A stretch of DNA of 64,000 nt from Verrucomicrobia bacterium UBA6176. GTDB taxonomy: Bacteria > Verrucomicrobiota > Verrucomicrobiia > Limisphaerales > UBA9464. The notes under the pieces were generated by a model. The model did no database searches. It was given only the letters and a program-made list of their open reading frames with translations, and was not told the origin of the DNA. The translations under genes were made by a program, and so were the position numbers. Below, in pieces: positions 2,184 through 25,359 of the stretch. Location of the stretch: NCBI GenBank assembly GCA_002422905.1, contig DITU01000107.1, forward strand, positions 134,633-198,632. Reading direction: 5' to 3'. The first letter of the stretch is position 1. Each line of letters starts with the position of its first letter.

Positions 2184-2932
2184 GTGCCTTTGCCGAACAG
2201 GATGGCGGGGATGGTCTTGAGGAGGAGCCAGAGGTCCTTCCGGAAGGACTGGCTTTCGATGTAGCGGACGTCGAGGTCCACCTGTTCCTCGAAGTCGATG
2301 GCATTGCGGTCGCCGATTTCGAAGAGGCCGCCGTGACGTTCGCCGACCTGCCAGAGGCAGGTGATGCCGGGTTTCACATTGAAACGGCGGCGATGCCGTT
2401 GCTCGTACAACTCGACCTCACGACGGACGGGGGGACGTGGGCCGACGATGGACATCTCGCCGCGGAGCACGTTCCAGAACTGGGGCAGTTCATCGAGCGA
2501 AGTCTTGCGCAGGATGCGGCCGACCCGGGTGATGCGGGGATCGTCCTTCATCTTGAAGGTGATCCCTTCCTTCTTTTCGTTCAGCGCCAGCAGATCCTTG
2601 AGGCGGGCCTCGGCATCGACGCACATGGACCGGTACTTGAGCATCCTGAACTCGCGGCCATGGAGTCCGTAACGGGTCTGGCGGAAGAACACCGGCCCGC
2701 CATCGACCTTGACCAGCAGGGCGATCATGAGGAACAGCGGGGAGAGGACGATCAAGGCGGCGAGACTGATGACGACATCGAAGAGACGCTTGAGGAAATA
2801 GGCGAAGCCGGTGACACCATTCCAGGCGTACCGTTTCCACGTCACGTAGAGGTTCAGGCGGGCACGGCCGATCGGGGATCGGGCGGAAAGCAACCGGTTC
2901 GCCATCCGCTCCCGGATGTCGTCATCGTTCAT
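2180..2932 (-). CDS. Undecaprenyl-phosphate sugar phosphotransferase (bacterial sugar transferase, WbaP/EpsB-like small PGT)
   Basis: The track ORF was trimmed to the ATG at 2932 ([10 protein letters not shown]..). It has a TM helix ([22 protein letters not shown]) and the motifs [55 protein letters not shown] and [10 protein letters not shown]. The start overlaps the upstream stop (ATGA). Confidence 0.9.
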
Positions 2933-3570
2933 GGCAACGCCCTCCCCGGATGGGATTCGATCCCGGCCATCGACTTCAGGCGGCCTGCGATTTCCTGGAC
3001 CTTCGCCGCGGTGAGTGGAGCCTGGATGACCTCGGATGCGAGTCGGCGTTGAGGTTCGACATGGTCCCGGTGCATGGGTTGGACCTGGTGCAGGAACTGT
3101 CTTCGTACGGCCTCGGGCGATCTGCCGCGTTCCCGGGCATCGCGGGCGAGACGCCGTTCGAGGCGTTCGGCCTCCCCGCATTCCAGGAAGCAGCTCCAGT
3201 CGAAGCGGGACCGGATGTCCTCATGATGGAGCAGCCAAAGGCCGTCCCAGATCATCACGGGCTTGGGGATGAGCTGACGCGGGAGGGGATGGCGGGTGTG
3301 GGTGTGGAAGTCATAGGAGGGAACTTCGGCTGCCGCGCCTTTCCGGAGCCGGTCGAGCACCAGTCCCAATCTCGTCCAGTCAATGCTGGCCGGGTCATCG
3401 AAATTGACAGCATCCCGCTCGGCAGGAGGAAGCGCCGAAAGATCGCGGTAATAATCATCGAGACTGATCCGCGCTGACACCTGTGGGAGCGCTTCGAGCA
3501 GGTGGTCGGCGAGCCAGGATTTGCCGGATCCGCTGCCGCCGACGATGGCGATATGGAGATTCGGAGTCAT
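2929..3570 (-). CDS. Uridine kinase / phosphoribulokinase-family P-loop kinase
   Basis: It has a Walker A motif (IAIVGGSGSGKSWLA), then SLDDYYRD and FDDPASIDW, typical of the Udk/PRK family. It has ATGA overlaps at both ends. Confidence 0.7.
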   Translation of the reverse strand: MTPNLHIAIVGGSGSGKSWLADHLLEALPQVSARISLDDYYRDLSALPPAERDAVNFDDPASIDWTRLGLVLDRLRKGAAAEVPSYDFHTHTRHPLPRQLIPKPVMIWDGLWLLHHEDIRSRFDWSCFLECGEAERLERRLARDARERGRSPEAVRRQFLHQVQPMHRDHVEPQRRLASEVIQAPLTAAKVQEIAGRLKSMAGIESHPGRALP

Positions 3571-4769
3571 TGGTCGGAGCCGGTCCGTCCCAAGGCGGAC
3601 ACCCTTGAGAACATGGCTTCGAGGTCACTGATATAGGTCTCGAAATCGTAGCGCTCGCTCACCAGGCGCAACCCGGCCTCGCCCAGGGACCGGGCACGGT
3701 CCTTGTCCGCGAGCAATTCATCAATGCGGGCTGCGTAGGCATCGCGATCCATCCAGGGGACCAGATAGCCGTTGTGCCCGTCGATCAGCCAGTCGCGGAT
3801 GCCACCGGCATCGAAGGCGACGACGGGGAGGGCGTAGCGCATGACTTCCAGACCGATGGTGGCGATGGGTTCGGGCCAGACGGAGCTGAGGGCGACCACA
3901 GTGCATTCGCGGTAGTACTGGGTGAGTTCCTCCTGGGGAACGAATCCCTTGAAGGTGACGCGGCCTTCGAGTCCCAGTTGGCGGGACAGTTGTTCGCAAT
4001 GGGACTTGTGGTTGCCATCGCCGAGGATGATGCACTCGAAGGGTTGACGGACGCGGGCCAGAGCTTCGAGGAGGACATCGACGCCTTTGCCGCGGATGAT
4101 CTGGCCGGCGTAGAGGATGAGGTTCCGGTTGCTGAAGGAGCTGCGGAGGTTGGGATCGCCCATGCGTGGGACCGGGGCGTGGATCTCAATGCGGGCTGGA
4201 TCGAATCCATTCTGGAGGAGTTCATCCCGCATATAGGTGGTGACGACGATCATCCGGTGGAAGCGTCGGTTGAGTTCGATCTCGCGGCGTTTGTCGGAAT
4301 AGCTGACCCAGCGGAGGGGGAAGCCGGGCCCGGACTTCCTGACGGCGAAGGCGAGGCAGGGAACGAGGCAGGCGAGGGAGGCGGGGCGGGTGCAGATCTT
4401 GCGGGTGAAGTAATCGTACTTGTAGCTGCGCATGCAGTAGATGTCGTGGTCATGGACCATGCGTGCGAGGGGTTGACCGGATTCGACGAGTGCGCCGATG
4501 ACCGACAGGTCGGCCATCTTGTGCACATAGACGGCGTCGGGCTTGAAGGCGGCGAGGGCCTTTTGGACGGTGAGGTTGTTGTCGTGGTCACCGAGGGCTG
4601 CACGGAATGGGAAGGTGGAATCCCAGGCGGATTCGCTTCGACCGGTGGAAGGGCCATGAAGGATTCCGAGGGTGTGTCCGCGCCGTGCCAACTCGGTGGC
4701 GGTGATGAAGGCATTGGCCTCGGCGCCGGCGAGGGCACCATACCGTTCATGCACGTAAAGGATTCTCAT
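3567..4769 (-). CDS. Glycosyltransferase family 4 (GT-B, EX7E type)
   Basis: The sequence begins [21 protein letters not shown].. and ends with C-terminal SSVWPEPIATIGLEVMRYALPVVAFDAGGIRDWL, an E-x7-E-like motif. It has ATGA overlaps at both ends. Confidence 0.9.
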   Translation of the reverse strand: MRILYVHERYGALAGAEANAFITATELARRGHTLGILHGPSTGRSESAWDSTFPFRAALGDHDNNLTVQKALAAFKPDAVYVHKMADLSVIGALVESGQPLARMVHDHDIYCMRSYKYDYFTRKICTRPASLACLVPCLAFAVRKSGPGFPLRWVSYSDKRREIELNRRFHRMIVVTTYMRDELLQNGFDPARIEIHAPVPRMGDPNLRSSFSNRNLILYAGQIIRGKGVDVLLEALARVRQPFECIILGDGNHKSHCEQLSRQLGLEGRVTFKGFVPQEELTQYYRECTVVALSSVWPEPIATIGLEVMRYALPVVAFDAGGIRDWLIDGHNGYLVPWMDRDAYAARIDELLADKDRARSLGEAGLRLVSERYDFETYISDLEAMFSRVSALGRTGSDQ

Positions 4770-7429
4770 GGCAGGCAGGGGGTTGAGTCAGGGGAACCAT
4801 CGAGGTGGGTTGAAAGCCAGTCCGCGAGGAGGCACACCCCGGTTTCTGCCGCCTCCCGCAGCGGGGTCAATTGCTGATGGCACTCCTCCATCTGGTCCTT
4901 GGAAGCGAGGGTTTCCATTTCCTGGAATTGTTGGCCGAGCTCGGTGAGGCCGAAGGTGGCGGCGATGCCCTTCAGGGCGTGCGCAAAACGTTCGGCTTCC
5001 ACGGCGTCGCCCCGATGGATCGCCTCGGAAACTTGATGGAGGCGGTCGGGGAGTTCGGAGGCGAACTCGCGGACGATCCCGGAGACGGTTTCCAGGTCCA
5101 ACTCCTCGACCAACCGGTCGAGGGCGGGCAGGAGCGGAGTGGGGTGGGTGGGCGGGGTTTTGGTGGCCGAGGCAGGGCCGCCGTGCAGCTTCAGGGGCTT
5201 GAGCACCCGCAGCATGGTGGTGCGGAGGTTGGACAGGGTGAAGGGTTTGGCGATGTAGTCATCCATGCCGATGGAGAGGCAACGTTCGCGTTCGCCGATG
5301 AGGGCATTGGCGGTCAGGGCGATGATGGCAATGCGGCGTGGGGGCGGATTGGCGGCCTCGATCCGACGGATGGACTGGGTGGCCTGGTAGCCGTCCATTT
5401 CCGGCATGTTGCAATCCATCAGGATGAGGTCGTAGGGCGTCTTCTGGAGGCTGCTGAGGACTTCGAGACCGTTCTGGGCGACGTCGGCCTTGATCCCGAG
5501 TTCCTCGAGCATGAGGAGGCAGAGCTTGCGGTTGATGGGATGATCCTCCGCCAGCAGGACCCGAACGCCCTCGATGGGTTGGAGATCATCGGAGCGGCGT
5601 TCGACCGGGCGGGGGAAAGCGGGGATGGAGTGTTCGGGCGTGGTTCCGTCCTTGCCACCTTCGACGGCGGTCACCAGGGCATCGAACAGGTAGGATTGTT
5701 TGACGGGTTTCAGGAGGATGTTCTCAAAGACATCGAGGGTGGCCTCGTTGTGGGTGGCGGTGGTGGAGGGATGGGCGAGAAGGATGCAGTGACACCTGGT
5801 TTTACGCTCGATGAGGTAGTTGATGAGTTCCCGGCCACCGAGCGAGACGGTGGCATCGTCACAGATCACGAGAGGTTTGCGTCCGTCGGCGAGGGCTTCC
5901 CCGAGATGTAGCATGAGTTCCTGCGGGGAAGCCGACTCCCTGAAGGTGATGTTCCAGCTGTGGAATTGTTCGCGGAGGGATTCCGCCTGGATCATGGATT
6001 TGACGCAGAGGAGGACATTGGCACGCACGAGGGCGGGATGGCTTTCGTGTGCGGGTGGCGGTCGGAGTGATTTCAGGGGGATCTCGAACCAGAAAGTCGA
6101 GCCATGGCCAAGCTCACTTGTCACTCCGATCCGTCCGGACATGAGTTCGACGAGGCGCCTTGAGATGGCGAGGCCAAGTCCGGTTCCGCCGAACCGGCGT
6201 GACGAGGATTGATCCGCCTGGACAAACGGCTGGAACAGGCGTTTCAACTGGGGATTGGTCAGGCCGATCCCGGTATCCTGCACCTCGAATCGGATCCAGA
6301 TCCGGAATTCCTCCGCCCTGATGACCTGGACGCGGAGAGTGATCTGACCGTTCGGGGTGAACTTGACGGCGTTGCCCACCAGGTTGACGAGGATTTGCCG
6401 GAGCCGTTCCGGATCGCCGAGCACCCGGTCGGGAACGTCGTGCTGGACGATGGAGGCCATTTCGAGGGTTCGTTCCGAATCCCGGGTGGCGGCGACTTCC
6501 AGAACGGCATCGAGCACCGGACGGAGGAGGAATTCCCGGGGCAGGATTTCCAGTCGGCCTGCCTCGATCTTCGAGAAGTCGAGGATGTCATCGATGATGC
6601 GGAGGAGGGCGTGGGTACTCTGGGAGATGGAATCGGTGAACTCGCGTTGGCGTGCTGCGAGGGGTGTCTTGCCGAGCAGTTCGGTCATGCCGAGAACCCC
6701 GTTCATCGGGGTGCGGATCTCGTGGCTCATGGTCGCCAGGAAATCGCTCTTGGCGCGGCTTGCCGCCGCGGCTTCCTCGGCGAGGGCATTGGCGCGGTCC
6801 CGTTCCTTCTCCAGGCTGATCCGGGACTGGTCGAGGTCCTCGATCATGCTGAGCATCACCCGGCGGCTCTGTTCGAGTTCGGAGGCGCGCCGGACCAGAT
6901 CGTCCGAAGTCTGTTGGAGGCGTGACTCGGCCACCTTCTGTTCCGAGATGTCGGAGAGGATTCCGATGACTTCATTGCCCTGGCCCGGGCTGGGGACGGG
7001 TTGAAGGAGGACGCCGCAGATCATTCCCGTATCGAAAACCGGGAAATTGAACTGCTGGATCTCGCCATGGAGGGCCTTTTCGAATCGCGCCAGATGGGCC
7101 GGATCCGGAAACAGTGCCGACAACGGGCGATCCTCGAGATCTGCGGGGCGATGCCCCAGTCGGGCAAGGAGCGCGCCGCGGGCGAGGAGGATCCGGAAGC
7201 CGTCGTTGGTCCGGGAGCAACGGATGACGACGTTGGGCTGAAGCTCGAGGGTTTGCCGGAAGAATCCGTTGGCCGTGGCCGGCGTGGAGCCGTGGCCTGG
7301 CGGGGATTGTTCCCCGGTCCTGGGCTGGAAGGACTGTTCGATGGCATCGAGCAGATGATGCAGTTCCGGGATGTCCGGGATCCCGCTGGGGAAGTATTGG
7401 GCGATCAGTTTCCTGAGCGGATCATTCAC
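4766..7429 (-). CDS. Soluble hybrid sensor histidine kinase: PAS-like, HisKA, HATPase_c, degenerate receiver-like, REC and Hpt domains
   Basis: It has an H-box ([15 protein letters not shown]), an N/G1/G2 pattern ([23 protein letters not shown]), a REC domain ([28 protein letters not shown]) and an Hpt motif ([13 protein letters not shown]). I saw no TM helix. The start is GTG at 7429 and overlaps the upstream stop by 8 nt. Confidence 0.9.
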
Positions 7430-8513
7430 CGTGCGGTGGGGTCGGGGGTGGGGTCACGGGGACACGGTCTGAGGCAGCCGACGGATAGAGGGGCGTGCGT
7501 CCCATCTCGCGGCAGAGTTCGTTGACCTCGTGCTTGAGTTCGAGGACGCGGTGTTCGCGGTTCATCATCACCCGGTTGACGCGTTCCAGTTCGGACATGG
7601 CGTTCCGGATCCGATCCTCGTCTTCCTTGCGGGCGGTGATGTCCGATTGAATGGCCATGAAATGGGTGATTTCACCGGCGTCGTTGCGGATGGGTTTGGC
7701 CTCGATGGTGATCCAGTATTTCCGGCCGAGCCTGGATTGGTTGAGGATTTCCACGGAGAAACCGACTCCTTCGCGGACGCTGCGGCGCATCAGTTCGACG
7801 GTGGCGGCATTGGTCTCGGGTGCCTGCAGCAGGGAACCCGGGGTCTGGGCGCGGACCTCGGCAAGGGAGTAACCGGTGAGACGGGTGAACCCGTCATTGA
7901 CCCATTCGATGCGGCCCCGGGCGTCGGTGAGGACGACCGCATTGGTGGTGAGTGCGGCGATGAGTGCGAGTTTGCGCTGTTCGGCATCCTGATCGCGGAG
8001 GCGTTCATTGGCGGCGCGAAGTTCCGCGCGTTGGCCGGTCAGACGATTCGCCAACTCCTTGGAGTCAGCCAAGGCCTGGTGCTGGGCCTGGACGATATGC
8101 AAGAGGTCGAGTCCGGGATCGTGGATTGGAAAATCATTGATGTTGAGTCCGAACCGGGCGATGGCGTTGGCCTCTCCCAACCAGGGTGACACCAGGAAGA
8201 CGAGCACCCGACCGGAATCAACCGGAAGCAGTTGTCCGCGGAATCGCAGGCTGGAAGCGGGATGCAACAGGAGGAAAAGCTGTTGCTGATTCTCCATCAG
8301 GACCGCGTGGTCCAACGCCACATCCGGCCGGATGAGTTGGAAGACATCCTTGAACAGTGCACCCGGAGTTGCCTCGGGACAGTAACGGGCGAGCGATGCT
8401 CCCACCTGAACGATGCGCAGGTCGCTATCGACGGCGAAATGAAACGGAAAAACGGCATGGAACTGATCGGGCGCCAGTCCGATCTCCAGGGTCGGTATGG
8501 CCGACAGTTTCAT
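7422..8513 (-). CDS. HNOBA (heme-NO-binding-associated) plus PAS domain signalling protein with no recognisable output domain
   Basis: The N-terminal half (FHAVFPFHFAVDSDLRIVQVGASL..FQLIRP..LRFRGQLL..VFLVSPWL..GLNINDFPIHDPGLDLL) matches the HNOBA pattern of soluble guanylate cyclases. A coiled coil follows, then a PAS domain (GRIEWVNDGFTRLTGYSLAEV..HFMAIQSDITARK) and a C-terminal helix (NREHRVLELKHEVNELC). I chose the ATG at 8513 because it forms an ATGA overlap with the H-NOX stop; the track start is 8531. Confidence 0.8.
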   Translation of the reverse strand: MKLSAIPTLEIGLAPDQFHAVFPFHFAVDSDLRIVQVGASLARYCPEATPGALFKDVFQLIRPDVALDHAVLMENQQQLFLLLHPASSLRFRGQLLPVDSGRVLVFLVSPWLGEANAIARFGLNINDFPIHDPGLDLLHIVQAQHQALADSKELANRLTGQRAELRAANERLRDQDAEQRKLALIAALTTNAVVLTDARGRIEWVNDGFTRLTGYSLAEVRAQTPGSLLQAPETNAATVELMRRSVREGVGFSVEILNQSRLGRKYWITIEAKPIRNDAGEITHFMAIQSDITARKEDEDRIRNAMSELERVNRVMMNREHRVLELKHEVNELCREMGRTPLYPSAASDRVPVTPPPTPPHGE

Positions 8514-9079
8514 GCAACCGGAGATTTCCATTCCACCAGGAAGAGGTCGTGATCCGCGCCCTCCGCCTTGCTCTCGAGCACCGTTGCCGTGGCCTCGGTC
8601 CCGAACCGTTTACCGAGGCCTTGTATCAGACCGACGACGAAATGGGTCAGGCCGGCGCGGTGCGTACGGTAGTGGAGGTGCAGGGAGTTGGGGCCGACAT
8701 CGGTGCAGGCGAATCGGGGTGGTTGGAGGTTGGGAAACACCATGACGACCCGGGTGTGGAAGTTGGGGAGGTTCAAGAGGAATTCGGGGAGGCTGGAACC
8801 GCCGGCGCTCATCAATCCTCCATAGCCTTCCTCCGCGGTCCGCAGCACCCAATGTTCGCCAAAGGCCCGCAGCAAGGCGTCCTGCGGCGCGCCCAGTACC
8901 GAACTCGCCGCCGCCACGAGTTGAAAGGTCATTTCGTCGGCATACGCCTCATTGCTGATGAACATTTCGACATCAACGCCGGCCTCCCGCTTGATGCGTT
9001 CCCACACTTCGACGCCGTGGTGGAGAACAACCATCTGTTCGATGCCGCGATTCACCATGCCGTACATGTCGGCGGACAC
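8510..9079 (-). CDS. hnoX: H-NOX (heme nitric oxide/oxygen binding, HNOB) sensor protein
   Basis: The N-terminal MYGMVNRGIEQMVV is the classic H-NOX start. A proximal-His context is present (LLNLPNFHTRV), as is a conserved Pro region (FPNLQPPRF). The heme-propionate motif is HYRTHR, a YxTxR variant of YxSxR. The protein is about 185 aa. The true start may be the second Met, at 9067. Confidence 0.85.
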   Translation of the reverse strand: MSADMYGMVNRGIEQMVVLHHGVEVWERIKREAGVDVEMFISNEAYADEMTFQLVAAASSVLGAPQDALLRAFGEHWVLRTAEEGYGGLMSAGGSSLPEFLLNLPNFHTRVVMVFPNLQPPRFACTDVGPNSLHLHYRTHRAGLTHFVVGLIQGLGKRFGTEATATVLESKAEGADHDLFLVEWKSPVA

Positions 9080-9611: not shown

Positions 9612-10709
9612 TCAGGGTCCCACATTGACTCCGACACCGATGCGGTCGACGCCGCCGCCGGCGCGGATGCCTTCGTTGGCGGCGACGGTCCGGACGAAGG
9701 TGTTGACGATGAACTGGCCGGCGTTGCGGAGGGTGCCGAGAGGCTTTTCCGGGACGTAGACGATGTCCCGGGGTTGGAGGGGGACATCGGGGATGCGGCC
9801 CCGGACGATGTCGTGGAAATTGACGACGGCGCAGTGGGGATTGGATAGGGAACCGCGGACGATGACCACCTCACGGAGCCGGGCCTCGGGGAGGGTGCCC
9901 CTGGCTGCGGCGATGGCGGAACTCACGGTGACCTGATCCTTGAAGGAGACGGCACGGGGATCGAACACGGCTCCCAGCACATAGACGCCGGTCGAGAGTG
10001 CCGACGGGAGAAAGACGAAGTCGTCCGGGCGCAGATAGATGTTCTGGGAGAGGTCGCCGCCGTGGATGAGTGCCTTGAAATTGACCGGCAGGAATTCTCC
10101 CTCGCGCACGATGAAACTGTGTTGGAGGTCCGCCAGTTCCTCGGTCGTGCCGGTGAACCGGGCGGTGTAGAGGCCGCCGGCCTGGGTGATGGCGTCGATA
10201 AGGGTGGTGGGCCGTTGGATTGGATAGATGCCGGGGCGTTGGAGGCGGCCCAGAACCCAGACGCGCTGACTGACCACCTGACGCACGGACAAGGTGACCC
10301 GGGGATGACGGACATAGCGTGTCAGTTCCTTTTCGAGAGCCCGGCACGCCTCGGATTGGGTCATGCCCCACACATTGAGACCCGGAACCAGATGGAAATA
10401 GATGCGACCGTCCGGCCCGACGACGGTGTCGGTCGGCGGATCCCCGAACCCGATGAGTTCGATCTCGATCCGGTCGCCGGGACCGAGCCGGTATTCATCC
10501 GCGGGAGGCTGGAGCCATTCGGGGCGGATGGCATTCGTCATCGAAAGCGACTGGACGATGGTGGGATCTTTGGGATCGCTGGGATTGAACGCGGGACCGC
10601 GGTGGGGTGTGGAGCAACCGGATGAAAGTACGGCAGCCACCAGACCGATCGTGAGGAGAGGAGCGACGGGTCCTGAGGCGGTTCGGGCGAAGGAGTGCGT
10701 GTTGATCAT
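9612..10709 (-). CDS. Outer-membrane polysaccharide export lipoprotein (Wza-like OPX: Poly_export plus SLBB repeats)
   Basis: It has a lipobox (AAVLSSGCS), a Poly_export core (YRLGPGDRIEIEL..VGPDGRIYFHLVPGLNVWGMTQSEACRALEKEL) and SLBB-like repeats (VWVLGRLQRPGIYPI, VYVLGAVFDPRAVSF). The start forms an ATGA overlap with the upstream gene. Confidence 0.85.
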   Translation of the reverse strand: MINTHSFARTASGPVAPLLTIGLVAAVLSSGCSTPHRGPAFNPSDPKDPTIVQSLSMTNAIRPEWLQPPADEYRLGPGDRIEIELIGFGDPPTDTVVGPDGRIYFHLVPGLNVWGMTQSEACRALEKELTRYVRHPRVTLSVRQVVSQRVWVLGRLQRPGIYPIQRPTTLIDAITQAGGLYTARFTGTTEELADLQHSFIVREGEFLPVNFKALIHGGDLSQNIYLRPDDFVFLPSALSTGVYVLGAVFDPRAVSFKDQVTVSSAIAAARGTLPEARLREVVIVRGSLSNPHCAVVNFHDIVRGRIPDVPLQPRDIVYVPEKPLGTLRNAGQFIVNTFVRTVAANEGIRAGGGVDRIGVGVNVGP

Positions 10710-13700
10710 GGGATCCGGGGCAGGATGGCGCGCGGAGTGGCGGGGCGGACATTGAGTCCCACCCAGGTGGCGGTCACCGCCTGGACATAGGAACTGACGG
10801 CCAGTTCGAGGAGGTCCTCGGCGCGTTGCCAGGGTTTCTCTGCGACATAGATGAGGTCCTTGGGCTCGAGATCGAAGTCCCTGGCCCGGCCCGAGAGGAT
10901 GGCATCGACATCCACCACGAAGGTCTGGGGAGCCTGCAGGGAACCGCGGACGACGAGGACGCGTTTCTTGTAGGCGGTCGGGGCGAAACCGCCGCGGACG
11001 GTGAGGACGCCGATGAGGGTCCGTTCACCGGCGAGGCCGAGTGGACCGGGGCTGCGGACCCAACCCAGCACATAGACTTCATTGACAGTGCTGGATGGGA
11101 AATAGAGGTAGTCGCCGGGTTCTATGAGGATGTTCTGGGAGAGGTCGCCCTTGCTGAAGAGTTGTTCGAAATTGACGGGCAACCGTTTTTGATCCCGGAC
11201 GATGAAGGCGCGGGTCATGTCCGCCATTTCGATGGTGTTCTGCTGGTATAGTCCGGTGTCGACGCCGCGGGCGCGCGCGACGGCTTCGATGAGGGTGAGG
11301 GGACGGTCGAGGGTATAGGCGCCGCGATCCACCACGGCGCCCATGAGATAGTATTGTTTGGATCTCCATTCGACCGGCGTGACGATGGAGCGGGCGTGAC
11401 GATGGTATTTGGAGAGGACCTCATCCAGTTTGTCCCGCATCTCATCGACGGTAAGGCCGGCGACGGGGAGGGACTGGGCTTCGAGATAACTGATGCGTCC
11501 GTCCGGGCCGACCGGGACGGCGCTGCGGAGGGAGTCCTTGTTGCCGTAGATCTGGAGGTTGAAGACATCGCCGGCGCCGACGGTGAGGCGTTCCTGCCAT
11601 GGGGCGATGGTGGGTTGGGGTGCAGAGGCGGCGAGGCGTCCGGGCGGGACGGGCGATGGTGAGTCTTCGGCCAACACCGATGATCCGAGGAGGCAGATCA
11701 GTCCGAGCGGGGTTCCGGTCAGGCGTTGGAGGGCGGGCAGTTGCCAGGCTGAGGATGGTTCCCGGTTGAGGATGGCGCCGACGGGACGTATGTCGGCGGC
11801 GTCGAGGGTCTGGGTCATCTGGGACAGTTCATTGGCCTGTGACTGTCCGCTGTTGGTGATCCAGACCAGGGTGGGCATGAGTTCGGCGGCGAACACGGGG
11901 TTCAGGGAGGAGAGCGGAGGCAGTTCCACGAGGAGGACGAAGGGGGGCAATGATTCCCAGTGGCTGACCGCCCTGAGCCAGAGCGAGCGGTTCTCCAGGG
12001 TCCAGTTCCACGAAGCGTCGAAGGAGAGTTCGATCCGATGCGGCCCCGCGTCCCGCATGAAGTCCGAGAGCAGGCCAGGATCCTGAAGGATGGCGGCGAG
12101 CGGCATCGAGCGGATCGTGGCATCCGCGCAGGGTGCATTGACCACCGTGACCGTCGACATTCCGCGCTCGAATGCGGCATCGCGAAGGATCCGGATGACG
12201 GTGGTGCGACCTTCCCCGGCGTCGGCGGAGGCGAATGCGATGGTGAGCCGGGACGGATCCACGGGTTGGATCGAGCGCATGAGCTTCGCCCAGGTGCGGA
12301 ATCGCCACTGGGCCACCCCCTCGGCATCCGCGGTGAGGTTCGTTGGGAGTCGTGCGAGGACGGGGATGCGCAGGATCCGGGCGAGGTCACCGGCCGTCAT
12401 CACGCGGGTGTCGGCGATCTCCCGGATGCAGATGCCGAGCAGGGCGAGGAGAGCCCCGAGGAATCCGGCGGCGACGGTGACGAGAATGATCTTGCGCCAG
12501 CGGCTGCCGGTTTCGATGGAGGCGGGGGTGGCGGGTGCGAAGAGGCGATAGAAGCCGGGCGGAGTGTCGACGAAATTCTGGGCTTCGCGTTGGCGTCCCC
12601 CGAGCATGTCGCGGGTGGCGGAAAGGGATTGCTGACGGGCGACCATCTGGGCGAAGCGCTGGGCTTTCTCGGGGAGTTCGCGGAGGCGTGCCTTGACCCG
12701 GTCACGGAAGAGGGTCATCTGGCTGATCTGTTGGCGGGTGCCTTCCTGATCGCCGCGCATCTGGAGGACCTGGAGGTAGAGTTCGTTGGCGATGGTGTTT
12801 TCGCTGTAGCGGAAGGCGGGGTTGTTGGTGGCGGCGCCTGGCTCCGGGACATTGGTCTCGGCTTCGAGGGAGGCCAGTTGGGCGGCGGCATCCTGGACCT
12901 GGGGATTCTGGTCGGTGAATCGGGCGCGGAGGAGGCTGAGTTCTTCGCGGGCCTGGGAGACGCGGAGGCTGGCGGGGTTCTGGCGGGTCAATTCGCGTTC
13001 GGCGGCAGCGATGCGGAAGCCGAGGGTATTCTGGTTTGCGAGGGCTTCTTCCAGGCGGATTTCGATGTCACCCAATTCCCGCAGGTAGGCGTTGATCTCG
13101 CGATCTTCGCCGAGGAAATCGGAGCTGTTGGCGAACTCGAGCAATTCGGCTTCCACCACGGCCAGTTCGGTATCGATCCGAGTGATCTGGTCCTTGAGGA
13201 ATCCGTTGAGTTCGGTCGCTTCCTCGGCCTGCATGCGTGCGGAGAATTCGGCGGCCTTCCGCGCGAAGAGATTGAGGAGATCGGCAATGGCGCGCGGGCT
13301 GGAATGTCCCTTGAGGGAGATATGGATCAGGTCGGTGTCCCGTTCGGGCCGGACCAGGAGGGCACCGCGAAGGAAGGAGGAACTGACGGGTGGCTGGGCA
13401 TTGGTGCCGACCTCGTGAAGGAATCTGCCGGACTGCATCACACTGACGATGGTGGCGACATTGATCTGGCGGGGCTTGAAGGCTTCACCGGCCTGGGAAG
13501 CCTTCATGGAGTCGGTGACGTCCCGCCGGATGAGTTGGACTGACCCGGAGTAGGATGTGCTGAAACGGTTGAGACCGGCGAAGAAGGCGGGGGTCGCGAG
13601 CACCAAGGCGCCGAGCGGGATCCAGTACCAGCGGGCCAACAGCGCCGTGATCAGGCGGAACGGGTCGAACGGCAATGCGAACCCACCCGCCTTGCCCGGC

Positions 13701-13861
13701 ACACCCGGGCGGTCCGGATCGGCATCGGTTGGAGCTTCACCGGGGTGGGAATCGCGGGCGGAATAAGTGCCGGGGGCGGGCGTGGCCGGGGTGACCGGGT
13801 TGGTCTGTTCCCGTTTCTGGCGGAGATCGCGGACGCGAAAGGGTTCGGGGGTGTCACTCAT
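10706..13861 (-). CDS. Fusion of a Wzz/GumC-type polysaccharide co-polymerase, a degenerate BY-kinase-like P-loop domain and a C-terminal Wza-like OPX module
   Basis: The track ORF 10706..14047 was trimmed to the ATG at 13861 (MSDTPEPFRV), an 8-nt overlap with the upstream stop. TM1 is WYWIPLGALVLATPAFFAGL, followed by a long coiled-coil periplasmic region and TM2 (IILVTVAAGFLGALLALLGICI). A P-loop-like region follows, with GEGRTT in place of GxGKT. A third hydrophobic segment (GTPLGLICLLGSSVLA) precedes Poly_export/SLBB sequence (LTVGAGDVFNLQIY..VGPDGRISYLEAQSLPVAGLTVDEMRDKL..YYLMGAVVDRGAYTL). There is no in-frame stop between the modules. Confidence 0.85.
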   Translation of the reverse strand: MSDTPEPFRVRDLRQKREQTNPVTPATPAPGTYSARDSHPGEAPTDADPDRPGVPGKAGGFALPFDPFRLITALLARWYWIPLGALVLATPAFFAGLNRFSTSYSGSVQLIRRDVTDSMKASQAGEAFKPRQINVATIVSVMQSGRFLHEVGTNAQPPVSSSFLRGALLVRPERDTDLIHISLKGHSSPRAIADLLNLFARKAAEFSARMQAEEATELNGFLKDQITRIDTELAVVEAELLEFANSSDFLGEDREINAYLRELGDIEIRLEEALANQNTLGFRIAAAERELTRQNPASLRVSQAREELSLLRARFTDQNPQVQDAAAQLASLEAETNVPEPGAATNNPAFRYSENTIANELYLQVLQMRGDQEGTRQQISQMTLFRDRVKARLRELPEKAQRFAQMVARQQSLSATRDMLGGRQREAQNFVDTPPGFYRLFAPATPASIETGSRWRKIILVTVAAGFLGALLALLGICIREIADTRVMTAGDLARILRIPVLARLPTNLTADAEGVAQWRFRTWAKLMRSIQPVDPSRLTIAFASADAGEGRTTVIRILRDAAFERGMSTVTVVNAPCADATIRSMPLAAILQDPGLLSDFMRDAGPHRIELSFDASWNWTLENRSLWLRAVSHWESLPPFVLLVELPPLSSLNPVFAAELMPTLVWITNSGQSQANELSQMTQTLDAADIRPVGAILNREPSSAWQLPALQRLTGTPLGLICLLGSSVLAEDSPSPVPPGRLAASAPQPTIAPWQERLTVGAGDVFNLQIYGNKDSLRSAVPVGPDGRISYLEAQSLPVAGLTVDEMRDKLDEVLSKYHRHARSIVTPVEWRSKQYYLMGAVVDRGAYTLDRPLTLIEAVARARGVDTGLYQQNTIEMADMTRAFIVRDQKRLPVNFEQLFSKGDLSQNILIEPGDYLYFPSSTVNEVYVLGWVRSPGPLGLAGERTLIGVLTVRGGFAPTAYKKRVLVVRGSLQAPQTFVVDVDAILSGRARDFDLEPKDLIYVAEKPWQRAEDLLELAVSSYVQAVTATWVGLNVRPATPRAILPRIP

Positions 13862-14741
13862 GGCGTGGCGACTGGTGACGGCGCAGGTCGGCGGCGACCG
13901 TTTGGACATGGGTGGAGGCAACTTCGCGGGCGCCCTGGAGCCAGGCTTGTTCGAGGGCGAGTTTGGCGAGGCGATTGATGCGGCGTGGAATGCCCTGGGC
14001 CTCGGCGAACACGACTGAGGCGGCTTCCGATGCAAACACGCGGCCATCGGTGTGGCCGGCGGCGATCAGTCGGTGACGGAGGTAGGAACCCACCTCGTCT
14101 GCCGGGAGGGATTGAAGATGATACCGGAGACTGATGCGTTGCTCGATGGCCGGGCTGGCATCGACAAGCCGGCGGAGTTCGGGTTGCCCGACGAGTACGA
14201 GGGTGAGGAGATGGGTTCCCCCGCCATTCCAGTTGGTGAGCGAACGCAGTTCGTGGAGTGTTGCCGCAGTCATGTCCTGAGCTTCATCCAGGATGAGTAC
14301 CAGATGTCGGCCGCCGCGGGCGATCCGGCGGATCATGGCTTCCAGCATTTCGCATCGGGCGAGGGTCCCGGCCGGGGGCACCGGTGCGCCGGGATCCAGG
14401 CGGTGGATCAACGACGCGATCAATTCGGGGAAAGGGAATCCCGAGTTTTCCAGGGTCAACACCTGGAAGCGCGCGGGATGGATGGTGGCGGTGAACATGG
14501 CGCGGGTGAGGGTCTTGCCGCAGCCGATCTCGCCGGTGAGCAACCCGATGTTCATGCTGGTCTCGGTGACCAGGTAGAGCAGGCGATCCAGGGCTTCCCG
14601 ATGGTCGGGGCTGGCGTGGAAGAAGCGGGTATCCCAGGTGGCCTCGAACGGGCGTTCCCGGAGACCCCAGTGGGCCAGGAGTCCGGGGGCGGAAACCGGA
14701 TCCGGGAGGCCTGGGGAGGGCAATTCAACGGGCGCGGGCAT
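13854..14741 (-). CDS. ExeA-like AAA ATPase (the type associated with PEP-CTERM/EPS loci)
   Basis: It has a Walker A motif (LTGEIGCGKT) and a Walker B motif (HLVLILDEAQ), then LVLVGQPEL and C-terminal GIPRRINRLA, typical of the ExeA/GspA-like AAA_22 family. I chose the ATG at 14741 (MPAPVEL..); the track start is 14849. Confidence 0.8.
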   Translation of the reverse strand: MPAPVELPSPGLPDPVSAPGLLAHWGLRERPFEATWDTRFFHASPDHREALDRLLYLVTETSMNIGLLTGEIGCGKTLTRAMFTATIHPARFQVLTLENSGFPFPELIASLIHRLDPGAPVPPAGTLARCEMLEAMIRRIARGGRHLVLILDEAQDMTAATLHELRSLTNWNGGGTHLLTLVLVGQPELRRLVDASPAIEQRISLRYHLQSLPADEVGSYLRHRLIAAGHTDGRVFASEAASVVFAEAQGIPRRINRLAKLALEQAWLQGAREVASTHVQTVAADLRRHQSPRHE

Positions 14742-15873
14742 CAACAATCCTCCGGTAGATGGCCAACGTCTGCTCTGCATTGCTTCCCCAGTCGAATCGG
14801 CGGGCGTGCGCCAGTCCCCGTTCGGAGAGCAGGGAACGACGTTGCGCATCGGTCGTCAACCCGGTCATCACCGTGGCCATTCCGGCGACATCTTCAGGTT
14901 CGATCACGGCGGCGGCATCACCGATGACTTCCCGCAAGGATCCGCGGGTGGAACTGATGACGGGAACGCCGCAGGCCATGGCTTCGACCGGAGGGAAACC
15001 GAAGCCCTCGAACAGGGACGGGTAGATGAAGAGGCTGGAGGCGCGGTAGAGGTTGGGCAGGGCGGCGTCCTCGACGAATCCGAGAAAGCGGATATCCGCC
15101 GCGAAGGGCGAGGCGGCGGCGGTTTCATGGACGGTGGCGGCGCCATGCCAGTCACTGCCGCCGAGGGCCAGGACCCAGTCCGAGCCGGTGGCGGACTTGA
15201 ACTGGTTGAAGGCGTGGATCAGCCGCACATGGTTCTTGGCGGGGTGCTCGATGCGGGAAACGTAGAGGAAGAAGGGCTGGTTGAGACCCCATCTGGCAGC
15301 GGCTTCACGCCGGGCATGGTCGACGTTTCCCGGCTTGAACCGTTCATGATCCAGACCGTTCCAGACCACATCCACGCGTTGGCGTGGAATGCCGAAGAAA
15401 TGTTCGATGTCGCGCGCGGTGTTGTCGCTGACGGCGATGAGTGCGTCCTGACGCCGGGCGAGGTGTTTGACGAAGACCCGGCCGTACAACATCCGCTTCC
15501 AGTCATATTTGCCGCGGACATGGAAGGGCGCGAGGTCGTGGATGGTGCCGACGACGGCGCAGGGTTTCCGCCAGAGCAGGCGCCGATAGCTGGGGGAATG
15601 GAGGACGTCGAGTTGCAGTCGGCGGGCGAGGCCGGGCAGATGGCTGTGGTGCCAGGCGACATTGCGGGCGGCGGGACGGAATTGTTCGGATACCGGAACG
15701 ATGCGCATGCTGTCGGCGGCGAAGCCGAGCAGGGGAATATCCTCTTCGAGTGTGAACAGGTGGAACTCGTGTTGTGCCGTGGAGGGGAGGAAGGCGCGCA
15801 ACAGGGCAAACACGTACTGGGCGACTCCGGTCTTGCCGCGTTGAATCACCGAGGTGGAGATCCCGATCTTCAT
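14725..15873 (-). CDS. Glycosyltransferase family 4
   Basis: The real gene is the 3' part of track ORF 14725..16734 and starts at the ATG at 15873 (MKIGISTSVIQRGKTGVAQYV..). The C-terminus SLFEGFGFPPVEAMACGVPVISS is an EX7E motif. The start forms an ATGA overlap with the upstream stop. Confidence 0.9.
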   Translation of the reverse strand: MKIGISTSVIQRGKTGVAQYVFALLRAFLPSTAQHEFHLFTLEEDIPLLGFAADSMRIVPVSEQFRPAARNVAWHHSHLPGLARRLQLDVLHSPSYRRLLWRKPCAVVGTIHDLAPFHVRGKYDWKRMLYGRVFVKHLARRQDALIAVSDNTARDIEHFFGIPRQRVDVVWNGLDHERFKPGNVDHARREAAARWGLNQPFFLYVSRIEHPAKNHVRLIHAFNQFKSATGSDWVLALGGSDWHGAATVHETAAASPFAADIRFLGFVEDAALPNLYRASSLFIYPSLFEGFGFPPVEAMACGVPVISSTRGSLREVIGDAAAVIEPEDVAGMATVMTGLTTDAQRRSLLSERGLAHARRFDWGSNAEQTLAIYRRIVDARAR

Positions 15874-17384
15874 GGGGCGGGTGCGGGGGAATCGAGGAGG
15901 TAGCCTTCGAGGCGGGTGATGCGGAGGACGTTCCGGACTGGAGGACTGGGATTGGTATAGGTCAGCCGCTGATGGCGGCGCCCGGTCTCCCGCTTGAATC
16001 TCAGGAGCAATCCGACGCCGGTGCTGTCGATGAAATCGACCTGGGAAAGGTCGAAGTTCACCGGGGTTTCGCAGGAGATGGAAGAGATGCGGGACTGGAT
16101 GCTCTGGGCGAATTCGCCGGCGTTGGCGGCGGTGATTTCGCCCCGCCAGGAGACGGTCGGGGTTGAAGGGGGGCCGGCCAACTGGACAGGAGGTTGCTCG
16201 GGTCGCAGCGAGAGCATCTGGAGGGCTGTGGATTGATCCGGGGCGGAGGGAAAGAATTCGAGGAGCTTCATCCCCTGCAGGATGGAGGTGACGACGGCCG
16301 GAATCGAAATCAGGACCAGCCCGTGCTTCGATTCGCGCGCGGTCTTGCGGAGTCGGACCAGCAATCCGATCCCGGTGCTGTCGATGAACGTCACTTCCGA
16401 AAGGTCCATGACGACATCGGATCCACTCACCTTCTCCAGCCATTCCTTCTGCACGACGGTGGCCGACGCGGCGTCGATACGGGTCGGGGGAACGATCAGG
16501 ATATGGGGAGCGGATGCATGGTTCGGGGGTGGCCCGGACGGGATGGGGTCCGGCTGGATTGCGGCCGGGCGCGGGGAGCACTGGGCCGGATGCGGGGGGC
16601 GGCTGCGCATCTGCCACCATTGACGCAGGATGGCGGTGCTGAAAACCCGGAGGTCCTTGGAGTAGCGCCGGACCAGCCGGGACGGTTCCTGGCACATGCG
16701 GTAGATCCATTCGGTCCCCGTCTTCTGCATCCACATCGGGGCCCGATTGAAGGTGCCGGCGAGGAAATCAATGGTGGCGCCCACCCCGACACTGAACGGG
16801 ACTCCCGCCGCCTGGAGGTTCATCCAGATCCATTTCTCCTGCTTGGGGCATCCGAAGGCGACCAGAAGGATGTCCGGGGCGGCCTGCCGGATGCGCTCCA
16901 GGATGTCGGAATGGTTCATGTCCAGGAGGGGACTGAACGGCGGTGAGTAGGCACCGACCAACTGGAGGGCGGGATGGAGTTCCCGGGTGCGCGACGCGGC
17001 AGCGGCCACGCTCTGCTCGGTGCCTCCGAGGAAGAAGACCTTCCAACCCTCACGTTCGGCACGTTCGAGCAGGAGGGGGACCAGGCCGGACCCGGTGACG
17101 CGTTCAGGAAGGGGGTTCCCGAGGAAACGGGAGGCCCAGACGATCGGTTGGCCATCGGCCATCACCAGGTGGGCGTCGAAAAGGATGCGACGCAGTTCCA
17201 CGTCTTCGAGGGATTGGACGAGGAAATCCACGTTGGCTGTCGCGGCGTAGTGTGGTCGACGCGAACGGACCATCTCGGCGATGAGGTCGAGTGTCTCCTG
17301 GGTCGTTACGTTGTCGAACACCACTCCAAGAACAGCAACGGGGGGCTTGCAGGGCCGGATCGGCGATTGTCCTGCGGGGGGCAT
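15870..17384 (-). CDS. WecB/TagA/CpsF-family (GT26) glycosyltransferase fused to two C-terminal STAS domains
   Basis: The GT26 core is VLGVVFDNVTTQETLDLI..TANVDFLVQS..VMADGQPIVWASRF..VFFLGG..LLVAFGCPKQEKWI. A Pro-rich linker follows, then two STAS units, each with the FIDSTG(I/V)GLL motif (MDLSEVTFIDSTGIGLLVRLRK and FDLSQVDFIDSTGVGLLLRFKR). I chose the ATG at 17384; the track start at 17423 is a TTG. Confidence 0.85.
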   Translation of the reverse strand: MPPAGQSPIRPCKPPVAVLGVVFDNVTTQETLDLIAEMVRSRRPHYAATANVDFLVQSLEDVELRRILFDAHLVMADGQPIVWASRFLGNPLPERVTGSGLVPLLLERAEREGWKVFFLGGTEQSVAAAASRTRELHPALQLVGAYSPPFSPLLDMNHSDILERIRQAAPDILLVAFGCPKQEKWIWMNLQAAGVPFSVGVGATIDFLAGTFNRAPMWMQKTGTEWIYRMCQEPSRLVRRYSKDLRVFSTAILRQWWQMRSRPPHPAQCSPRPAAIQPDPIPSGPPPNHASAPHILIVPPTRIDAASATVVQKEWLEKVSGSDVVMDLSEVTFIDSTGIGLLVRLRKTARESKHGLVLISIPAVVTSILQGMKLLEFFPSAPDQSTALQMLSLRPEQPPVQLAGPPSTPTVSWRGEITAANAGEFAQSIQSRISSISCETPVNFDLSQVDFIDSTGVGLLLRFKRETGRRHQRLTYTNPSPPVRNVLRITRLEGYLLDSPAPAP

Positions 17385-17430
17385 GTCGGAGGAGTCACTA
17401 CCCAATTGAGGTTGGGATTCCAAGTGCCGG

Positions 17431-18843
17431 TTGCGTCGTCAGGTCGATTGGGCGTGTAATCTGACAGGCGCGTTGACGACGATTGACTTCATCAAGCTGG
17501 CGATTCTGGTGCCCTTTTTCATGGTGCTGGCGCCCTTGTGTGGGGTGGTCCTGAAGGGACGTCCCTCGTGGCAGCGGTTCGCATTCGCGATGCTGTGTTT
17601 CATGACCCTGAACGGCTTTCTCGGACCCGGGAACTGGGGGCTCACGCTGGGTTCGATCGAGGCGTACCGGGGCCACACCAAGGGCTTCCACTTCTACTTC
17701 AACCATGCCATCGCCATCGCCCTCATCAGTGCCCGATGGCTGGAAGATCGGCGCTCCTTCCGTTGGTTCCCGCCCGGCCTGGGATTGTATCTCCTCTACT
17801 GCGCCATCTCGCTGGTGTCGCTGGTCAACGCGCCATCGCCCGGCCTGGTCTGGATGGCCGCCCACAAGATGATCTTTGCGTCGGTCCTTTTGATCGCGGC
17901 GTTCAACCAGTTGAGGTCGGATGCGGACCTGCGGTTTTTCCTGCGGGTGATGGTCTGGGTGATGACCTGGGAGCTGCTGGTCTGCCTGAAGTTGAAGTAC
18001 CTGGACGGCATGTATCAGGTGCGCGGAACCTTCGAGCACCAGAATCCGCTCGCGATGTACTCGGTCCTCGTCGGGATGATCCTGCTCGCGGTCGGGTTGG
18101 GTCCGCCGCAACCGGAGAGCAGGTCCTACGTGTTCGGTTACCTGGTGTGCGCCGCGATCGTCCAGAGCACGCTGTCGCGGGGGGCGCTGGCGATGTTCGC
18201 CGTCGGGTCGGTCATGGTGGTCGTGGTCAGCCTGGCTGAGAAGCTTACCGTACGTCGGGTGGTCATGGTCGGGGTGTTGGGCCTGGTGGGCCTGATTGGA
18301 TTGGTTCTCGCGCTCGACAGCATCGTTTCCCGTTTCAATGATCGGGGAAATGCGGCCAGCGGTCAGTTGCGCGAAGTCATGAACCGGGCGTCCATGGAAA
18401 TGGTTCGGGATCATCCCCTGGGCATCGGATGGAACAACTTCGCGCTGGTGGTGAATCCGCCGCATCGCTACGCGGACATCTACTACGACTGGAATCGGGA
18501 AAGGGGAATGGCGGTGGATGAAACCAAGGCCAACGCGGTAGTGGAAAGCCACTACTACCTGTTGCTCGCCGAGACCGGATGGCTGGGGTTGGCCAGCTAT
18601 TGCCTGCTGATCGTCGCCGGTTTGTGGTGGAACCTGAAGTCGTTCCTGCTCCTGCCCCATTCCTTCAGGCGTACCCTCGCCCTGGGCATCGCCACCGGTT
18701 GCGCCCTCAACTACGCGCAGAGCAGTCTGGAACGGGTGCTTGTCCAGCCCCGCAACCTGATGCTGTGGCTCGTGGTCGCGGGTGTGACGGGGAGGCTGGA
18801 AGTCATGCGGCGCGACGCCGCCAAACGAAAGGCCGGCCAGTGA
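17431..18843 (+). CDS. O-antigen ligase / Wzy-like polymerase family membrane protein
   Basis: It has at least 10 hydrophobic helices and a loop with the motif ESHYYLLLAETGWLGLASYCLL, typical of Wzy_C. The start is uncertain: 17431 is a TTG, and alternatives are the TTG at 17473 and the ATG at 17521. Confidence 0.8.
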   Translation: MRRQVDWACNLTGALTTIDFIKLAILVPFFMVLAPLCGVVLKGRPSWQRFAFAMLCFMTLNGFLGPGNWGLTLGSIEAYRGHTKGFHFYFNHAIAIALISARWLEDRRSFRWFPPGLGLYLLYCAISLVSLVNAPSPGLVWMAAHKMIFASVLLIAAFNQLRSDADLRFFLRVMVWVMTWELLVCLKLKYLDGMYQVRGTFEHQNPLAMYSVLVGMILLAVGLGPPQPESRSYVFGYLVCAAIVQSTLSRGALAMFAVGSVMVVVVSLAEKLTVRRVVMVGVLGLVGLIGLVLALDSIVSRFNDRGNAASGQLREVMNRASMEMVRDHPLGIGWNNFALVVNPPHRYADIYYDWNRERGMAVDETKANAVVESHYYLLLAETGWLGLASYCLLIVAGLWWNLKSFLLLPHSFRRTLALGIATGCALNYAQSSLERVLVQPRNLMLWLVVAGVTGRLEVMRRDAAKRKAGQ

Positions 18844-25225: not shown

Positions 25226-25359
25226 CCGACCCAGGAATTTCGGGATGCACGGCGGGGAAGTTGAAGTGGAATCCCGGGGATTGACTCCGGGATTGGGGAG
25301 GAGCGTCCTGATGAAAATTCCCGGTCTGGTCAATGGGGTCCAGTCCCGAGGTTACCCCC

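Follow-up and report, generated by a model that had tools for sequence, protein, structure and literature searches.

Can the inner-membrane co-polymerase and the outer-membrane exporter of a bacterial polysaccharide secretion machine be made as one polypeptide and, if so, does that polypeptide stay in one piece? The question is raised by a gene in a 64,000-nucleotide stretch of contig DITU01000107.1 from Verrucomicrobia bacterium UBA6176 (positions 134,633 to 198,632 of the contig; hereafter, the window, to which all coordinates below refer unless another locus is named). An earlier note on this DNA described an open reading frame (ORF) without internal stops that joins a polysaccharide co-polymerase (PCP), a pseudokinase and an outer membrane polysaccharide export (OPX) protein, and proposed that a hydrophobic segment ahead of the OPX part re-enters the membrane and thus makes the link between PCP and OPX permanent. 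The ORF list and the homologues bear out the single frame, and the fusion is genuine, conserved and widespread in Verrucomicrobiota. The permanent covalent link is unsupported as stated: by its sequence features, the segment is the signal peptide of the OPX part. The gene seems to encode a polyprotein-like precursor of a polysaccharide export machine, from which the OPX part (hereafter, OPX-A) is probably released by a predicted cut.

One frame for co-polymerase, pseudokinase and exporter

The stop-free frame spans 10706..14047(-), and translation from the ATG at 13861 yields 1051 amino acids (aa) followed by a stop codon (fusion gene, 10706..13861(-)). Along the chain, a first transmembrane helix (TM1), a periplasmic coiled coil, a second transmembrane helix (TM2), a domain with the fold of bacterial tyrosine kinases (BY-kinases), a short hydrophobic segment and a Wza-like OPX follow one another. 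This order, the membrane topology and the positions of the parts, all of them proposed earlier from the letters alone, agree with the hydropathy profile and with the AlphaFold model of the chain (mean pLDDT, the predicted local distance difference test score, 84.8). In Foldseek searches, the model matched both full-length Wzc (E = 1.6e-21 over ~770 columns) and Wza (E = 1.3e-18 over ~300 columns) and, by sequence, the family profile matched Wza, PslE, Wzc and CapA/CapB chimeras in the PDB. Public annotation of the relatives reads just 'polysaccharide biosynthesis/export family protein'. The start codon of the gene overlaps the TGA (13856-13854) of an upstream ATPase gene, and its own TGA (10708-10706) overlaps the ATG (10709-10707) of the next gene, which encodes a second OPX protein (OPX-B), as ATGA. 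Because of these overlaps on both ends of the fusion gene, the three genes are tightly packed in one orientation, and OPX-B is apparently coupled to the fusion gene in translation through the ATGA. Antisense ORFs that cover the fusion gene (up to 527 aa, among them 11960-13543(+)) are attributable to the G+C content of 64% and lack support as genes.

The co-polymerase part opens with a basic, poorly conserved and largely disordered cytoplasmic tail (aa 1-66; 13664..13861(-); pLDDT <50 for aa 21-59). TM1 (aa 67-99; 13565..13663(-)) is modelled as helices 67-76 and 80-99, with a hydropathy peak at aa 70-97. The periplasmic domain (aa 100-453; 12503..13564(-)), delineated by the TIGR matches, the family profile and the secondary structure of the model, combines a base of alpha/beta type with long helices in a coiled coil, which are up to 58 residues in length. 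TM2 (aa 454-483; 12413..12502(-); hydrophobic core, 12487-12425) is a confidently predicted helix (pLDDT >90) with a Kyte-Doolittle mean of 2.54 over 19 aa. In NCBIfam, this half of the chain matches the chain-length determinant models TIGR03007 (E = 3e-21) and TIGR03017 (E = 3e-12), both under the curated cut-offs, and the profile of the family connects the domain to PslE (E = 2.6e-11) and Wzc (E = 5e-8). PCP-2a co-polymerases are marked by two transmembrane helices that flank a large periplasmic coiled-coil region and by a cytoplasmic BY-kinase fold at the C-terminus; both hallmarks are present here, the latter from profile and Foldseek comparisons.

The cytoplasmic domain (aa 484-714; 11720..12412(-)) has the BY-kinase fold and is catalytically degenerate. 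The family profile matches CapA/CapB chimeras in this region (4jmp, E = 1.5e-6; 3bfv, E = 6.5e-6), and the Foldseek TM-scores against CapAB, BceF, the Wzc kinase and Etk span 0.56-0.71, including 0.71 for CapAB (4jlv), 0.67 for BceF and 0.61 for the Wzc kinase (3la6). The motifs were aligned to CapB through a phmmer search of the kinase-like part alone against the PDB, which gave a marginal match (E = 0.23). In this alignment, the Walker-A-like GEGRTT (aa 549-554; 12200..12217(-)) faces CapB GAGKST, with Arg in place of the catalytic Lys, and the Walker-B-like VLLVELPP (aa 642-649; 11915..11938(-)) faces VIIDTPP, with Glu for Asp, in agreement with the altered motifs that had been pointed out before. 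The Walker A' region (hhhhDxDxR) reads VTVVNAPCA, so that the Asp pair is missing as well. GAILNREP, the last strand of the kinase fold, aligns to GVVLNRMP, the last strand ahead of the CapB tail. Between this strand and the hydrophobic segment, the window protein contains no Tyr, and the same tail has none in 123 of 133 relatives (maximum, 2), so the absence of a Tyr cluster, also remarked upon earlier, holds across the family. Of the features of active BY-kinases, the protein thus has neither the Lys of Walker A nor the Asp of Walker B, and both the Asp pair of Walker A' and the Tyr cluster are absent.

These substitutions are typical of the family. The position of the Walker A Lys is occupied by R in 76 of 116 family representatives, by K in 17, and otherwise by C (8), V (6), T (4), A (3), Q (1) or L (1); the Walker B position holds E in 98 and D in 13 of the same representatives, and only 1 of 120 combines Lys with Asp. 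The consensus motifs are GEGRST and VELPP. Judging from these alignments, the kinase-like part is a pseudokinase family with a well-kept P-loop shape rather than one decayed copy and, because the P-loop shape (GEGRST) and an acidic Walker B residue are conserved, nucleotide binding may persist. In the co-polymerases P0009-P0012 of loci L001-L003, where the OPX is a separate gene, even the P-loop is gone and the pseudokinase has decayed further.

OPX-A (aa 755-1051; 10709..11599(-)), identified by Pfam, phmmer and AlphaFold, comprises Poly_export together with a pair of SLBB domains, corresponding to domains D1-D3 of Wza, and a C-terminal helix. Pfam scores on this part are 42.1 bits for Poly_export (cut-off 28) and 55.6 bits for SLBB_2 (cut-off 27). 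The beta-rich fold starts at about aa 766 in the AlphaFold model and ends with the C-terminal helix at aa 1012-1037 (10751-10828). In phmmer, OPX-A matches E. coli Wza with E = 9e-15, in an alignment that reaches the start of Wza domain 4.

Distribution of the fusion

The survey of related genomes that the earlier note had called for finds the fusion widespread in Verrucomicrobiota. Three parts in one stop-free ORF were seen in the first-found full-length homologues, eight proteins of 38-79% identity that share the same single frame. An exhaustive profile search of 1.84 billion representative sequences gave 989 matches with E <1e-30, of which the best 150 were collected together with the first hits; among the collected sequences, 76 carry all three parts in one chain (72 of them at full length, 940-1130 aa), about 24 only the co-polymerase and kinase-like part, and about 29 only OPX. 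The fusion is thus carried by about 72-76 distinct 50%-identity clusters. In the Genome Taxonomy Database (GTDB), surveyed with one genome per species, 210 loci encode a relative, and 78 of the best 80 that were examined have the three parts in one stop-free ORF, nearly all in Verrucomicrobiota. The fused loci are labelled Limisphaerales or subdivision 3, Verrucomicrobiales (Prosthecobacter, Phragmitibacter, Akkermansiaceae), Chthoniobacteraceae, Opitutaceae and Pedosphaera; one belongs to a cultured strain, Prosthecobacter fluviatilis KACC 12649 (L040). Another fused locus (L045) comes from a metagenome-assembled genome (MAG) labelled Haliangiales (Myxococcota), which could be explained by mis-binning or horizontal transfer.

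Could a missed stop codon or a frameshift have joined two separate genes on paper? Split versions of the locus do occur in other lineages, which would speak for such an error. Against it, the single frame recurs in 78 of the 80 species genomes and in the ~72-76 clusters, and the insertions and deletions that distinguish the relatives at the junction stay in frame. Furthermore, the nearest relative (79% identity) was assembled independently in four samples, from ENA, JGI and NCBI sources, each time as one gene of 1060-1072 aa. An assembly frameshift was rejected on these grounds, and the chance that the fusion is an artefact appears negligible.

The earlier note had also raised the prospect that the fusion is already common and characterised. 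Common it is, at 78 of 80 loci, whereas full-text searches of the literature, including a survey of 91,000 OPX proteins, found no natural PCP-OPX fusion and no characterisation of one; as far as searched, the fusion is common in its phylum and apparently unstudied. That survey scanned OPX-related Pfam models only. In the window protein, the domain scan proposed earlier succeeded for the OPX part, where Poly_export and SLBB were found, but not for the rest of the chain: neither Wzz nor GNVR of Pfam matches the co-polymerase part, there is no kinase-like Pfam match, and searches restricted to these two parts gave nothing useful at E values up to 10. Pfam-only domain surveys would therefore miss such fusions.

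The junction and the fate of the polypeptide

The third hydrophobic segment proper covers aa 719-731 (11707-11669) and lies within an internal Sec-type signal peptide (aa 708-731; 11669..11740(-)) that was assigned from its likeness to the N-termini of stand-alone OPX-A proteins, from hydropathy and from family statistics. It has an n-region with R713, the core LGLICLLG and the c-region SSVLA, with a predicted signal peptidase I site at VLA731|ED; a basic n-region, a short hydrophobic core and small residues at -3 and -1 are what is expected of a peptide cut by this enzyme. About 90 fused junctions show the same succession of basic residues, 10-18 hydrophobic residues and an A-x-A-like site, then Q/A and E/D, and so do the N-termini of stand-alone OPX-A proteins. 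As a membrane helix, the segment is weak. In the window protein, it passes a 13-aa hydropathy scan but fails a 19-aa one, and AlphaFold renders it as an 8-residue helix of low confidence, followed by 21 residues (726-746) with pLDDT <50. Across the family, its best 19-aa Kyte-Doolittle mean has a median of 1.50, compared to 2.19 for TM2 of the same proteins (p = 1e-32). Ala occupies -1 in 144 of 162 junctions, as against 110 of 162 after shuffling of the flanks (p = 6e-6) and 85 of 162 beside TM2. We relied on this frequency and on hydropathy instead of a plain scan for the (-3,-1) rule. Taken together, these features mark the third hydrophobic segment as the Sec-type signal peptide that belongs to OPX-A itself.

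The predicted site is separated from the OPX fold by a Pro/Ala/Ser-rich linker (aa 732-754; 11600..11668(-)) that is modelled with pLDDT <50 as far as aa 746. It is 23 aa long in the window protein, with a median of 31 aa in the family (5th and 95th percentiles, 15 and 63 aa). Stand-alone OPX-A proteins have the same kind of linker, so it does not appear to be a tether invented for the fusion.

Split relatives of the locus point to the likely origin of this arrangement. In those with a 684-aa co-polymerase (P0011, P0012), glycosyltransferases, the AAA_22 ATPase, the co-polymerase and two OPX genes follow one another. Loci L001, L002 and L049 share this synteny, and their OPX-A proteins carry an N-terminal signal peptide at the place homologous to the internal segment, whereas the second OPX of split loci carries a lipobox. 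The first OPX of L002 opens with a typical Sec signal peptide, MILRRWWLFFVLLSGAFT|QEP, and its ATG overlaps the stop codon of the co-polymerase gene as ATGA. L049 reads ...LNHEP-stop-PDFQF-M-NKQPRPITGVAGLILLLAAAPALA|QETQ..., in frame with the fused relatives, from which it differs by an in-frame TAA after ...LNHEP and by an ATG five codons on that starts the OPX signal peptide. Given the gene order and the match of the signal peptides, the fusion in the window is most simply seen as a co-polymerase gene that came to be read through into the first OPX gene, which we infer to have occurred by loss of the stop codon between the two. The split state of L049 (8040-8200 of that locus, in a Verrucomicrobiia MAG) could be a true fission or a sequencing error.

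Alternatively, OPX-A might be translated separately from the same ORF, from a start codon just upstream of the segment. Indeed, in L049 the segment has an ATG of its own from which it can work, and 9 of the 58 fused loci that could be analysed have an in-frame ATG near it. In the window, however, the nearest in-frame ATG, GTG or TTG upstream is M682, which lies inside the kinase-like domain and lacks a motif resembling the Shine-Dalgarno (SD) sequence, and the 36 codons between M682 and the segment contain none of the three. At as many as 27 of the 58 loci, no candidate start lies within 14 codons of the hydrophobic core, and only 1 start in the whole set is preceded by an SD-like motif. No internal start is conserved, which argues that OPX-A is translated as part of the long chain; the earlier remark that the OPX part has no usable start in front of it is borne out, and internal initiation, which was rejected on this evidence, seems very improbable.

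The alternative that deserves serious consideration is that the long chain is never cut, with the segment acting as a permanent signal-anchor and OPX-A tethered to the inner membrane by a linker of 15-60 aa. The topology is consistent, the segment being preceded by a basic residue and followed by acidic ones; OPX-A has no start of its own; and the fusion has been retained across several orders. Moreover, the segment reaches the classic hydropathy threshold (>=1.6) in 37% of the proteins, and its uncharged span (median, 20 aa) is little below that of TM2 (23 aa); in some members, the segment could thus anchor the chain stably. On the other hand, TM2 reaches that threshold in 94% of cases, the model of the segment is of low confidence, Ala at -1 is kept beyond what composition explains, and the counterpart of the segment in split orthologues, which function without a tether, is a cleavable signal peptide at the N-terminus. 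Geometry is a further obstacle, argued here from helix lengths. In E. coli, Wza sits on the tip of Wzc (PMC12881504); if the assembly in question resembles Wza-Wzc, a 58-residue helix at 1.5 A per residue places the tip ~87 A away, atop the base domain, which an uncleaved OPX-A on a linker of 15-23 aa could hardly reach, and linkers of ~15 aa would not reach it at all. The uncleaved chain is accordingly possible but doubtful. Were it real, each protomer would be one chain that extends from the cytoplasm to the periplasmic OPX ring, crosses the inner membrane three times and brings along its own subunit of that ring, with OPX-B stacked above, in a covalently wired two-tier conduit, a picture that we put forward only tentatively; it would be the first natural case of an inner-membrane co-polymerase and an export channel as one polypeptide. 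Thus, of the trans-envelope unit proposed earlier, the single polypeptide stands and the permanent link is not supported as stated, in view of the split homologues, the weak hydropathy and the -1 Ala. For these reasons and because of the low model confidence, signal-peptidase cleavage is at least as likely as tethering.

Under the cleavage that we favour, TM1 and TM2 would enter the inner membrane, with the dead kinase domain folding in the cytoplasm. The internal signal peptide would then re-engage Sec and export the OPX-A half, which signal peptidase I probably cuts after VLA731, such that mature OPX-A would begin with EDSPSPVPPGR. OPX-A would be freed beside the co-polymerase that carried it, at an exact 1:1 ratio, and the co-polymerase would keep a third membrane segment. 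A ring of co-polymerases, OPX-A without a lipid anchor and OPX-B anchored by lipid in the outer membrane could then build an envelope-spanning conduit; whether the two OPX proteins form stacked or mixed rings is a guess. The pseudokinase ring might serve as a constitutive, phosphorylation-independent oligomerisation scaffold, similarly to EcpK, HfsB and the kinase-dead Wzc K540M. The K540M mutant forms stable octamers and a stable Wza-Wzc complex (PMC12881504), and the BY pseudokinases EcpK of Myxococcus xanthus and HfsB of Caulobacter have been proposed to act as scaffolds that organise a PCP-2 co-polymerase without a phosphorylation cycle (PMC12004946).

Several observations weigh against this account or leave parts of it equally well explained otherwise. 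The cut is a prediction from sequence, favoured rather than proven. The (-3,-1) rule holds at 157 of 162 junctions, yet also at 146 and 143 of 162 control sites, so that it fails to discriminate, the junction region being rich in Ala. At least 78 species have retained the fusion over the long term, perhaps because the covalent link is itself useful. A neutral ratchet explains the retention equally well: a stop codon within an ATGA overlap is easily lost, whereas a stop, a start and a ribosome-binding site are hard to regain, and the fused state could persist for that reason. As regards the passage of the polymer across the outer membrane, Wza_C of Pfam (PF18412) matches neither OPX at E = 0.01, and no gene for a beta-barrel porin was found nearby in the scanned ORFs of the window or in L040.

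An unrelated precedent for the proposed processing is FbcH, the cytochrome b/c1 precursor of Bradyrhizobium japonicum, in which a membrane protein is followed by a signal peptide and an exported partner from the same complex, and signal peptidase yields the subunits at 1:1; cleavage has been shown experimentally for FbcH and is inferred for the fusion. Literature searches for bacterial polyproteins with an internal signal peptide yielded no usable case. If its joint is cleaved, the fusion would be an example, rare in bacteria, of a polyprotein that is cut at a signal peptide within the chain. Conservation of a natural fusion throughout a phylum is an argument that strict 1:1 pairing and insertion at one place can be selected for or, at the least, are tolerated.

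The second exporter, related systems and gene neighbourhood

The gene downstream of the fusion (9612..10709(-)) encodes OPX-B, a free-standing protein of 365 aa that was identified by Pfam, NCBIfam, its lipobox and AlphaFold. The Pfam scores (Poly_export 58.8 and SLBB_2 73.9 bits) are above the gathering scores, and the AlphaFold model (pLDDT 82) matches Wza (2j58) with a Foldseek E of 2.6e-21. Its signal peptide ends in LSSG|C32, which fits a lipobox; G31-C32 is invariant in 54 homologues, and a lipobox is present in OPX-B of most related loci. In OPX-A, a lipobox was never seen across the fused junctions and stand-alone N-termini compared. Over 301 aa, the two OPX proteins of the window share 34.6% identity (E = 2e-56), in accord with the earlier description of this gene as a lipoprotein paralogue of the fused OPX. 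The fused form is always accompanied by an OPX-B downstream, and OPX-B proteins of different genomes are mutual nearest neighbours, separate from OPX-A, so the duplication appears to predate the spread of the family. In the Prosthecobacter group (L040, 8937-9617, and related loci), the fusion gene and OPX-B are separated by an inserted gene for a LuxR/GerE-type response regulator.

Class-1 OPX proteins such as Wza combine a lipid anchor at the N-terminus with the Wza_C helix, which spans the outer membrane. Both proteins of the window align to domains 1-3 and the start of domain 4 of E. coli Wza, and in each of them a C-terminal helix of 24-26 residues is predicted (aa 327-350 in OPX-B) at a position homologous to that of Wza. 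Each of these helices contains four charged residues. The helix of OPX-B is almost invariant (NTFVRTVAANEG), and this near-invariance makes it look like a protein contact rather than a lipid-facing element.

One of the closest known counterparts is the Wzc-Wza pair of E. coli group 1 capsule and colanic acid (PDB 9r64, 7nhr, 2j58). The two systems share a two-TM coiled-coil co-polymerase with a C-terminal cytoplasmic P-loop domain of the BY-kinase fold, and an OPX that has Poly_export as well as a pair of SLBB domains. Unlike Wzc-Wza, the system in the window is encoded in one reading frame joined by a signal peptide; its kinase lacks the catalytic Lys and Asp residues and the Tyr cluster; and it has two OPX paralogues, both without a Wza_C match, of which the fused one is not a lipoprotein. 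How an inner-membrane co-polymerase and an outer channel pair, and in what ratio, has been seen structurally only lately and only for E. coli Wza-Wzc. For structural and biochemical studies of the complete conduit, the fusion provides a ready-made construct.

BY-kinase folds devoid of catalytic residues and of a Tyr tail also occur in EcpK/EpsV of M. xanthus and HfsB/HfsA of Caulobacter (PMC12004946). EcpK, however, is a separate protein that has lost all Walker motifs, whereas the domain in the fusion lies within the co-polymerase chain and keeps the P-loop shape and the acidic Walker B residue. The fusion brings a large family, in which the Lys-to-Arg change of the P-loop is conserved, into the newly proposed class of phosphorylation-independent co-polymerases.

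The best NCBIfam matches of the PCP, of both OPX proteins and of the ATPase are to models of the XrtA/PEP-CTERM locus (TIGR03007, TIGR03027 and TIGR03015), and the gene neighbourhood is similar. Nevertheless, all scores are far under the curated equivalog cut-offs (TIGR03007, 75.1 vs 278.85 bits; TIGR03027, 87.6 and 119.9 vs 180; TIGR03015, 155.5 vs 324.5), which keeps the system out of this group, and XrtA/PEP-CTERM loci encode these proteins separately. There is no exosortase among the selected window ORFs that were scanned; exosortase and PEP-CTERM genes were not systematically looked for.

With class-3 OPX proteins (WzaB of M. xanthus, PDB 9n9a; PslD), the OPX proteins of the window share the Poly_export-SLBB architecture without Pfam Wza_C. 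They are longer, with three Wza-like domains and a C-terminal helix of 24-26 residues each and, unlike in the class-3 case, no adjacent gene for a beta-barrel porin was found in the scanned ORFs of the window or in L040. A minority of class-3 OPX use Sec/SPI rather than lipoprotein signal peptides (PMC9603273), and WzaB requires lipidation for its oligomerisation at the outer membrane (PMC12819527). By analogy, the latter requirement may explain why the system in the window has a lipoprotein partner.

The gene directly upstream of the fusion (13854..14849(-)) encodes an ExeA-like AAA_22 ATPase (AAA_22, E = 8e-20; TIGR03015, 155 bits against a cut-off of 324). An ATPase of this kind directly precedes the co-polymerase or fusion gene, its stop overlapping the start of that gene, in all five related loci checked (L001, L003, L040, L084 and L085) and is a conserved partner of the fusion gene. 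The surrounding polysaccharide cluster includes a phosphoglycosyl transferase of the Bac_transf type (2180-3181), a WecG transferase that carries two fused STAS domains (15870-17423(-)), a membrane protein of the Wzy_C family (17431-18843) and GT4 glycosyltransferases. This content fits a Wzx/Wzy-type pathway; no flippase was identified among the scanned window ORFs. A fusion of WecG/TagA/CpsF with two STAS domains occupies the same position relative to the fusion gene in the distant L001 (4534-5997) and in L040 (2141-3793).

Within the polysaccharide cluster, directly downstream of OPX-B, lie genes for an H-NOX haem-nitric oxide sensor (8510-9079(-)), an HNOBA-PAS protein (7422-8531(-)) and a histidine kinase of the hybrid type, which has receiver and Hpt domains (4766-7429(-)). 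This arrangement recurs in the nearest relative (L084, L085) and may imply nitric-oxide-responsive control of polysaccharide export. Elsewhere in the window, an ORF of 4628 aa (25333-39219(+)) starts with a signal-like sequence and contains many internal repeats.

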